A stretch of 64,000 nucleotides of DNA from Flaccisagitta enflata (Eukaryota): NCBI GenBank assembly GCA_965153355.1, contig OZ231126.1:5146001-5210000 (forward strand). The letters are read 5' to 3'. The first letter of the stretch is position 1. Each line of letters begins with the position of its first letter. The translations under genes and the position numbers were made by a program. Shown piece after piece: positions 46,201 through 49,200 of this stretch. The notes below the pieces were generated by a model. The model was not told the DNA's origin. It saw only the letters and a program-made list of their open reading frames with translations, and did not search any database.

Positions 46201-49200
46201 GGAAGCCCTTAAATATCTATATATAAGTTACAAGCAAGGTCTAGTGGGGCGTTGGTCATCGAGAAATTAGTGTGTGGATGAATTAGCAAAAACTGAGGAA
46301 AGATATGTTCCGAGCTACTACTTATGAGTGTGTCTGATTTAGGGTTAAGGCCTAAGGGTAGCCTGGGTAGGTTGTGGTGAGACCTAGGTTTGAGGTTAAT
46401 GGTAGGGTTGAGGTTACTGACAAGGTTGAGGTTAGGTGAAGACAAGGGTTGTGTTGAAGTATTGTTGAACAACATAGCGAATGGCCAATAAATAGGGTCA
46501 TCTTTTACACCTTTTCCAGTTGTCTTGTGCGTGTGCTTGTGGTCTCCGTGCGATGGACGTTCGGCCTTCGTGTTCGATGGCATGGGAGGAGGAGGAGGCA
46601 TGAACAATCCCAGATATACGGACCGAAGCGGAGCCCACGTCATTCCTAATCCGGTGAGAAATCCGTCAAGATTATGTGAAGTTGTGATGGAAATCATGAA
46701 AAGTAAATGAATTAGCAAAATTGACTGAATTTGATATTAAAATCTCTTTTAACAGATTGGTGGAGGAGTGTTTTGTTCATCAATAACATGATTACTTGAT
46801 TATATGAGGTTGTGATGGAAATCATGAAAAATATAGGACTGAGCAAATTTGGTTGAATCTTAATATTGAAATCTCTTTCAACAGATTGTGGGCGAAAGCG
46901 GTGGATTGGAGTGCAGATGGCACAACTACAACTGCCACAAAACGGACAGCATTTGCAGCTTGCAGCCCGACAAACCAGATTGCAAGTCAGTAGTTTTTCA
47001 TGACACTTTTTTCTTGTGGGGGGGCGGGGCTCTAATAAAGATAATTGACCATTGACCGCTGGATTGTGGACACGCTTCTTGCTTTGCTGATATTGCATCA
47101 ATGACCCCTTACTTTGTTGTTAATGGTTCCTTTGTTGTTAATGATTCCCTACTATGTTGTCAATGATTCCTTCACACTGTTGTTAATGATTGCTTCACAC
47201 TGTTGTTAATGACTCCTTCTTACTTACTGATTCAATCTCAGATGCGAGGAAACGAAAGACATTTGTCCCGAGCCTGAGGAGGGAAAACGCGCGCATTGCT
47301 ACATGTCTTGGAAAAACGAAACTGGTGAGTTAACAAGGGGATTGCTACTTGTCTTGGAAAAACGAAACCGGTGAGTTAACAAGGGGATTGCTACACATCT
47401 TGGAAGAACGAAACTGGTGAGTTGACAAGGTGATTGCTACATGTCTTGGAATAAGGCCAACACCTCTAAGTCGCTTGTGGTTGTCAATTGTAAAAAACAA
47501 AAATTCAAAATGTAAAATGACATAAAATGACAAAAAGAGTTAACGGAGACGGCCCGACTGATGGACCGACCGATGGACCAACCGACTCACCAACCGACCG
47601 ACCAACATAGATGTAAAGTCGCGTAGCACGCAACTAAAAACAAAACTGGTGAGTTAAAAAGGAGATTGCTACAAGTCTTGGAAAAACAAAACTGGTGAGT
47701 TAAAAAGGGGATTGCTACATTACTTGGAAGAACGAAACTGGGAAGTTGATTGCTGCAGTTTTGGCAAAATGAAACTGGTGAGTTATCATGGGGATTTTTG
47801 AGTGTGAAGGTTGCGTAGAGACAACAGTCAACAGCTACTAACAGCAACAATAGCGCAAGAATGATGGCGATGACATCAGCACAAGAAAGACATAAGTTTG
47901 GGAACTTGGGTACGAAAACTATGAGAACAGGACAGCAGCATGAGAAATTGTATGAATACAATGAGTACATGAACAACCACAGTAAGAGATCTCCGACAAC
48001 AACTGGAGTACTAGTAGTCTAGTACTTCCTGGGTTGGCACGCTAATTTTAGCCACTTGAAAAAAGCCGGATTAAACCGGCTGGATTAAATTGGCTTTTTT
48101 CAAACAATTTTTGAAAAAAGCCAGCTAAAATTGGCTTTTTTCAAAAATTTTGTGTAAAATCACCGGAAATCCAAAAATTTTCCAAAAACCTAGTTTTTCA
48201 AAGAATATTTTTTTTTGCCTGACATCGATGATGACTCTCTGGCGCTTTTGGAAAATCCTGAGGATGAAACGGTGACTTAGGTTTGATCAGGTGAGAAACA
48301 TCAAAAGGTGACTGCAGCTTGAACTGTTTTTGATTCCATTGCCAACAAGGTCAATTATAGCTGTTTTTATCATCTTGCACTATATATCAACATTATTTTA
48401 TTATTTCTGTACTGATTGCTACTACTTCCACAGCGCATTTTTGAAAAAATCCGGCGCTTGAAAAAACACAGGATTTTAGCCGGTTTAATCTATTTTAGCC
48501 GGCTAAAATTGGCTTTTTTCAAAAAAGTGGCTTTTTTGCCAACCCAGAGTACTTCGCGAGATAAACAGCATCAATAGCGCGGGATTAACAGCGACAATAG
48601 CGCGGGAATAACAGCGACAACAGCGCAACAAAAGCGCTGAGAGAATCCCATTTATCATTCATTGCCCAGGCACGCCTGAACTGGTTCGCGCTGGTTGCTG
48701 GCTAAATGACGCCGGCTGCTACGGCCAAACCGATGCATCTCTTTAAATGGTTCCTTCTGTATTCATTGACTAGGAACGCCTGAGCTGGTTCGCGCTGGTT
48801 GCTGGTTAAACGACGCCGGCTGCTACAATCAAACCCAATGCATCTCTTTAATTGGTTCCTTCTGTATTCATTGACTAGGCACGCCTGAGCTGGTTCGCGC
48901 TGGTTGCTGGTTAAATACGCCAGTTGCTACAATCAAACCCAATGCATCTCTTTAAATGGTTCCTTCTGTATTCATTGACTAGGCACGCCTGAGCTGGTTC
49001 GCGCTGGTTGCTGGCTAAACGACGCCGGCTGCTACGATCAAACCCAATGCATCTCTTTAAATGGTTCCTTCTGTATTCATTGACTAGGCACGCCTGAGCT
49101 GGTTCGCGCTGGTTGCTGGTTAAATACGCCAGTTGCTACAATCAAACCCAATGCATCTCTTTAAATGGTTCCTTCTGTATTCATTGACTAGGCACGCCTG

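Follow-up and report, generated by a model that had tools for sequence, protein, structure and literature searches.

The 64,000-nt window analysed here (contig OZ231126.1 of Flaccisagitta enflata, positions 5,146,001 to 5,210,000; window coordinates are used throughout) carries on its + strand a gene that, by sequence, is that of activin receptor type II (ActRII), and the 5' end of its fourth intron is occupied by a 46-bp tandem array that reiterates the end of exon 4 together with its splice donor. This array is probably a junction-spanning minisatellite of the type found in intron 7 of human F7, with the first donor used and the rest silent, and a neutral or slightly harmful by-product.

The 46-bp period was detected by Tandem Repeats Finder (TRF) in two stretches, 47295–47451 (3.4 copies, 90% matches, score 265) and 47636–47741 (2.3 copies, 90%, score 170). 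Placed in register, these stretches form part of an array of seven units at 47295–47793, in which the unit joins the final 30 nt of exon 4 to the initial 16 nt of intron 4 and, read in the exon 4 frame, encodes CYMSWKNET. The heptamer GGTGAGT begins at 47324, 47370, 47416, 47648, 47694, and 47777, i.e. in six of the seven units, and the array thereby holds 6 of the 18 GTGAGT sequences on the + strand of the window. The intron, the units, and the array at the opposite intron end are as follows.

47325..49611, + strand: intron 4 (2,287 nt), donor array at the 5' end and acceptor array at the 3' end
47295..47340, + strand: unit 1, end of exon 4 and start of intron 4; authentic donor, first intron base 47325
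47341..47432, + strand: units 2 and 3 (starts 47341 and 47387); intact pseudo-donors 47371 and 47417
47433..47451, + strand: unit 4, left part (19 nt), cut off by the insertion
47452..47637, + strand: inserted dispersed, retroposon-like repeat (186 nt), core rich in (GACC)n, 3' end rich in A; splits unit 4
47638..47664, + strand: unit 4, right part (27 nt); intact pseudo-donor 47649
47665..47710, + strand: unit 5; intact pseudo-donor 47695
47711..47748, + strand: unit 6 (38 nt), last 8 columns lost; GGGAAGT is a dead donor whose first intron base would be 47741
47749..47793, + strand: unit 7 (45 nt), the most diverged (82% to unit 1); intact pseudo-donor 47778, followed by unique intron sequence
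48657..49684, + strand: acceptor array, 105 bp, 10 units (TRF: 9.8 copies, 94% matches, score 1832)

The identities of units 2–7 to unit 1 are 96, 89, 93, 93, 84, and 82%, respectively, the two farthest units being the lowest, and pairwise identities among all units range from 76 to 96%. Two derived letters are common to units 4 and 5, and likewise two to units 3 and 6. The two parts of unit 4 (19 and 27 nt) sum to 46 nt, the rejoined unit is 96% identical to unit 5, and the last 2 A of the insert can be assigned to either the insert or unit 4. Because the insert cleanly splits one unit, the halves of which add up to one unit, the structure supports the view that the donor array is older than the insertion. 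The insert itself is a dispersed repeat: DNA depth on it reaches ~1.1e4 (47476–47561) and ~9e5 (47562–47647), compared with ~100 for single-copy sequence, and its 23-nt tail motif occurs five times in the window vs 0 expected (none of 100 shuffles had any). No Rfam family was found in 46000–50000, and a literature search on the name 'HINE', which the initial annotation had given to this type of fragment, returned nothing relevant. That annotation had also described an array repeating the end of exon 4, a unit coding for CYMSWKNET followed by G and GTGAGT, donors at 47325, 47371, 47417, 47649, 47695, and 47778, and an array that was probably in place before the insertion. TRF and the register bear out the array, with the exon end set by a cDNA contig and by homologues; the unit encodes the peptide in the exon frame, all six donors lie where they had been named with GGTGAGT at each, and the lengths of the two unit 4 halves agree with the proposed order of events.

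Of nine sequencing runs, four, i.e. two of DNA (X1 and X2), one metatranscriptome (X7), and one of poly-A RNA (X9), were aligned to 46100–48650, a stretch that stops before the 1-kb acceptor array; the other five (X3–X6 and X8) are marine metagenomes of small share and do not enter the results. An X1 contig covers 47140–47527 (388 letters) with one other letter and no gap, giving the same first 3.4 units, and a second X1 contig covers 47655–48016 with two other letters; the latter derives from a haplotype without the nearby element resembling a miniature inverted-repeat transposable element (MITE), as its alignment passes from 48016 directly to 48579. The assembly may have been made from the X1 sample. 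X2 is a second sample of this organism and showed depth in 30 of 30 bins. Depth over the donor array was 133–189 in X1 and 88–109 in X2, with exon 3 at 94 and 99, respectively. Because the depth there is like that of exon 3, the donor array is single-copy and no genome-wide repeat.

Donor choice is seen in one X7 contig (record 20; 260 letters, depth 6.5), which aligns to 46588–46652, 46884–46985, and 47242–47325 with GT..AG joints between these segments. Its tail of nine letters departs from the intron and, with the shared G, gives the first 10 nt of exon 5. Because the contig runs through exons 2, 3, and 4 and then into the start of exon 5, exon 4 is spliced in this record at the first donor (47325). 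The X7 contig depth is 0 in bins 47390–47475 and 47648–47819, the bins covering units 3–7.

The acceptor array at the other intron end has units of 104–105 bp, each comprising an acceptor and the first 84 nt of exon 5, and its first exon bases lie at 48670, 48774, 48879, 48983, 49088, 49192, 49297, 49402, 49507, and 49612, the last being authentic. All 60 pairs of six donors and 10 acceptors were enumerated, and a single one, 47325 with 49612, keeps the frame and runs through exon 5 without a stop; the remaining 59 hit a stop. Since every pair except the authentic one meets a stop, there is no second productive isoform hidden in the arrays. The initial annotation had counted 6 potential donors and 10 potential acceptors in intron 4, had expected frameshifts from the donors 46 and 92 nt downstream, and had suggested a listing of pairs that restore the frame. 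Both counts are right (there are 10 AG/G sites) and the enumeration confirmed the frameshifts, but it yielded no frame-restoring pair besides the authentic one. Exon 4 as modelled there (47242–47324) is present in cDNA, namely in X7 record 20, and the proteins of relatives cross the same junction.

The five pseudo-donors retain a full CTG/GTGAGT or CCG/GTGAGT (exon/intron) and match or surpass the gene's other donors (CCG/GTGAGA, CAA/GTCAGT, CTG/GTAAGG, and AAG/GTTTGT). When the six other units were compared with unit 1, 3 of 54 donor 9-mer positions and 24 of 213 positions in the other columns differed (Fisher P = 0.31). Selective retention of the pseudo-donor bases is not shown by this comparison, which is a weak test with few units.

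The naming of the gene relied on phmmer searches against solved structures, single-exon Pfam matches being too weak. Exon 5 alone scored 20.1 bits with Activin_recp, just below the cut-off of 20.9, and Pkinase was matched by two other exons, these single-exon matches likewise being weak. The exon 5 peptide matched the solved ActRIIA and ActRIIB ectodomains at E = 1.7e-16 to 3e-15 (ActRIIA 5nh3, 1.7e-16), whereas its match to BMPR2 reached only ~4e-3; the exon at 54430–54672 matched the ActRIIA kinase 3q4t at E = 1.6e-28, whereas type I receptors reached only ~1e-13. The assignment to ActRII was made because exon 5 matches the ActRIIA/B ectodomains and the kinase exon matches the ActRIIA kinase: the gene has a three-finger ligand-binding domain with the CCCEGNxCN box and a cytoplasmic kinase domain nearest to those of ActRIIA/B. 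Among five candidates from the longer proteins of a large protein collection, three were relatives (P0001–P0003; 61–68% identical over exon 5). These are transcript-derived proteins of 254–289 amino acids from contigs of 1.2–1.4 kb and three related species, and they run continuously through the domain, crossing the junction of exons 4 and 5. In tblastn, parts of P0001–P0003 fell on 46549–46650, 46873–46986, 47240–47326, 49611–49796, and 50613–50861. The first five exons are as follows.

43212..43236, + strand: exon 1, coding part, from ATG to the donor CCC/GTGAGT; start of the signal peptide
46520..46653, + strand: exon 2, end of the signal peptide and N-terminus (X7 contigs, joint 46652->46884, tblastn of P0001–P0003)
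46885..46985, + strand: exon 3, first part of the ligand-binding domain (X7 record 20, GT..AG joints on both sides, tblastn)
47242..47324, + strand: exon 4 (83 nt), ending in CYMSWKNET plus G (phase 1) (X7 record 20; tblastn, 69% identity to P0001–P0003)
49612..49797, + strand: exon 5, second half of the ligand-binding domain (phmmer, tblastn); donor CTG/GTAAGG

A 17-letter loose end of two X7 contigs that start at 46523 matches exon 1 at 43223–43236 with one mismatch. At 47275, within exon 4, the window has T and X7, X1, and X2 all have A; this is the third base of a proline codon, and the difference is silent. P0001–P0003 end 14–17 residues past exon 6 (…LLEIK) in similar short tails, without a kinase domain; a receptor isoform lacking the kinase, or intron retention, may account for this. 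In the window, reading past exon 6 into the intron (50859–50920) gives 17 residues and then a stop, via a TTG microsatellite. No protein fragments of 34–111 amino acids from the same species were found. For the orthologous intron, metagenome contigs were scanned with the alignment of P0001–P0003, and no relative was present among 130 pattern matches. A scan with the exon 5 peptide gave two loci among 307 pattern matches, both of which were rejected as chance matches to one short pattern.

The organization of the array has a close parallel in human F7, intron 7 of which contains a 37-bp variable number of tandem repeats with a first unit spanning the exon 7 boundary; according to Borensztajn et al. 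2006 (PMC1557585), the 5–9 identical donors were all functional in minigenes and only the most upstream was used, a choice explained by the authors as 5'-to-3' oriented. According to the same paper, the first two pseudo-sites are also used, constitutively, in IFI6 (6-16) and in CBS intron 13, whereas the authentic donor alone is used in LMNB2 (100-bp unit) and PDGF intron 4 (81-bp unit). As in the F7 array so described, the first ActRII unit spans the exon–intron boundary, so that the authentic donor is followed by intronic pseudo-donors (PMC1557585), the unit lengths (37 bp in F7, 46 bp in ActRII) and copy numbers (5–9 and 7) are similar, and the most upstream donor is used, for ActRII as far as one contig goes. 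The two units are composed differently, with 4 exon and 33 intron bases in F7 compared with 30 and 16 in ActRII. For F7, the paper also gives a variable copy number and pseudo-sites functional by mutagenesis, whereas the ActRII array is known from sequence and contigs. The ActRII array shares with IFI6 and CBS the reiteration of the donor at the exon–intron border but differs from these genes, as they are portrayed there, in that no pseudo-site was seen in use and its use would lead out of frame or into a stop; in LMNB2 and PDGF, longer units reiterate the donor and only the authentic one is used, according to PMC1557585. The ActRII array further differs from that of F7 in that its units have diverged (76–96% pairwise), one unit is split by a mobile element, and an acceptor array is present in the same intron. 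A few narrow keyword searches of the literature turned up nothing useful on acceptor minisatellites and no case of arrays at both ends of one intron. Engineered tandem duplications of 5' splice sites have been used in vitro to study splice-site choice. In these duplications, identical donors likewise compete for one intron, but they are artificial, whereas the ActRII array is a natural locus with competing acceptors as well. As a head-to-tail array with a unit length in the range of ~10–100 bp and a first unit that holds the authentic boundary, the ActRII donor array fits the known class of junction-spanning, donor-reiterating minisatellites.

Such an array would have arisen by tandem duplication of a 46-bp piece (30 nt of exon 4 and 16 nt of intron 4) and expansion to seven units, probably through slippage or unequal exchange; we infer this origin for an array bordered on both sides by the same three letters, ATT. 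All further units lie inside the intron because unit 1 is continuous with exon 4, and the dispersed repeat was inserted into unit 4 later. The spliceosome would take the authentic donor, which comes first, and the five intact copies downstream of it would be removed with the intron; an mRNA made from any pseudo-donor would carry a premature stop and be lost or yield a useless protein. In all likelihood, the array is a by-product, either neutral or slightly harmful, of a genome whose tandem repeats make up about a third of this gene.

Several points weigh against this interpretation. The RNA support consists of a single metatranscriptome contig of low depth (6.5), and its nine-letter tail is compatible with 9 of the 10 acceptors, only the second (GAACGCC) being ruled out. 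Contigs drop rare variants, and minor use of pseudo-donors may therefore occur. X9, which is from the same organism, placed 2 reads from 12.2 million records (~6% of the run), 0 of them on exons, and is evidence neither way. The decay test has little power with only seven units, and weak selection would likewise be compatible with a donor intact in six of the seven. Neither X1 nor X2 lists a 46-bp indel or a joint within the donor array, but the contigs of two samples could hardly show copy-number variation.

The alternatives differ in how far they account for these data. It is barely conceivable that the donor array is an assembly artefact, or that it belongs to a satellite or mobile element spread through the genome and only looks like the exon end: the window is very repeat-rich, but the array is also present, at single-copy depth, in contigs built from short reads of two DNA runs, and its similarity to the exon end extends over the entire unit and peaks in the units nearest the exon. 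Intron-bound U1 small nuclear ribonucleoprotein (snRNP) can help exon recognition or block premature cleavage and polyadenylation, and unspliced pseudo-donors could serve as landing sites for U1 snRNP that aid recognition of exon 4 or suppress premature cleavage/polyadenylation in an intron containing A-rich mobile elements. The location of the array directly upstream of the A-rich inserted element would suit this role; it is nevertheless highly improbable, as the donor columns show no excess conservation and the donor of one unit is already gone.

An unlikely but more substantial alternative is that the pseudo-donors and pseudo-acceptors are partly used and form a dosage valve, in which unproductive splicing and mRNA decay are set by copy number or by splicing factors. 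The quality of the five pseudo-donors, each as good as or better than the gene's others, is in keeping with such a valve, as are the unproductive outcome of every alternative pair (59 of 60 with a premature stop) and the use of the first two pseudo-sites in human IFI6 and CBS (PMC1557585). No RNA contig, however, lies over any unit past the first, conservation of the donor columns does not significantly exceed that of the rest, and only the authentic site is used in F7, LMNB2, and PDGF (PMC1557585). It is decidedly unlikely that the amount of functional activin receptor is set by a splice-site lottery, the odds of which shift with the copy number of the array.

Several other tandem repeats are present in the gene. 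In the acceptor array, unit 1 has its own upstream context, whereas in units 2–10 a common pyrimidine-rich filler of 19 nt separates the exon part from the acceptor; because of this shared filler, the pyrimidine tract of the working acceptor (49612) is built from array sequence, identical in nine units, and its branch site is probably also array sequence. Recent two-unit duplications are suggested by the resemblance of unit 3 to 5 (both with a 1-nt deletion), 6 to 8, and 7 to 9. In intron 2, a 128-bp tandem duplication (46670–46759 and 46798–46888) copies the acceptor and the first four bases of exon 3, creating a pseudo-acceptor before 46756; the X7 contig takes the downstream, authentic acceptor. 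A 23-bp (and 18-bp) array of ~4–5 units occupies 47106–47219 and ends ~22 nt before the exon 4 acceptor, so that the 83-nt exon 4 is flanked by minisatellites on both sides. Intron 1 contains a 305-bp array at 44766–46073 (4.3 copies, 90% matches, score 1993) with a 143/162-bp sub-period, and an 18-bp array at 53942–54178 (13.2 copies, 97% matches) lies in the intron directly before a kinase-domain exon.

The MITE-like element in intron 4 (48029–48547, 519 bp) has 11-nt terminal inverted repeats and an 8-bp target duplication. It is skipped by contigs of both X1 (48016->48579) and X2 (48000->48595, with 31 letters between that resemble an empty site), and the insertion therefore seems to vary between haplotypes. 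All 9 inverted repeats detected in 47200–49850 lie inside 48056–48525, i.e. within this element, and no pairing between the donor and acceptor arrays was found. Elsewhere in the window, a 101-amino-acid open frame at 12529–12831 gave a weak match to DDE_3 transposase (E = 1.4e-5, 25.4 bits, cut-off 28.6) and is probably the remnant of a DNA transposon.

Tandem repeats make up 28.5% of the window and 33–35% of the ActRII gene, and those with a period of 10 or more are ~2 times denser in the gene than upstream. Under a model in which the unit that founded each array was duplicated at a random position among 21 junctions in 9.3 kb, 1.1–1.3 junction-containing units were expected in the gene and 3 were seen (Poisson P ~0.10–0.15; a rough, after-the-fact calculation). 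Because tandem repeats fill about a third of the gene, junction-spanning units are not unexpected, and by this rough estimate the co-occurring arrays need no special mechanism.

The ActRII array is the first example that we can cite beyond the human genes listed in PMC1557585. It constitutes a natural experiment in which five intact, strong pseudo-donors lie 46 to 453 nt past the real donor, and nine pseudo-acceptors at the other intron end share the upstream context of the real one. Between two arrays of like sites, splicing must therefore choose the outermost pair without help from local sequence. Gene predictors may readily select a wrong donor or acceptor at intron 4, which should be borne in mind in annotation. 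If receptor amount did depend on a splice-site lottery, the array would be a heritable, fast-mutating dosage dial on a receptor of the TGF-beta family and a natural test bed for the spliceosome's choice of the outermost pair among identical sites. If RNA confirms that the outer pair only is used, the locus would support position-based rules in an invertebrate, i.e. use of the donor that comes first behind the exon and of the acceptor adjoining a real exon body; if the outer pair is not exclusive, it would instead represent unproductive splicing tuned by a repeat.

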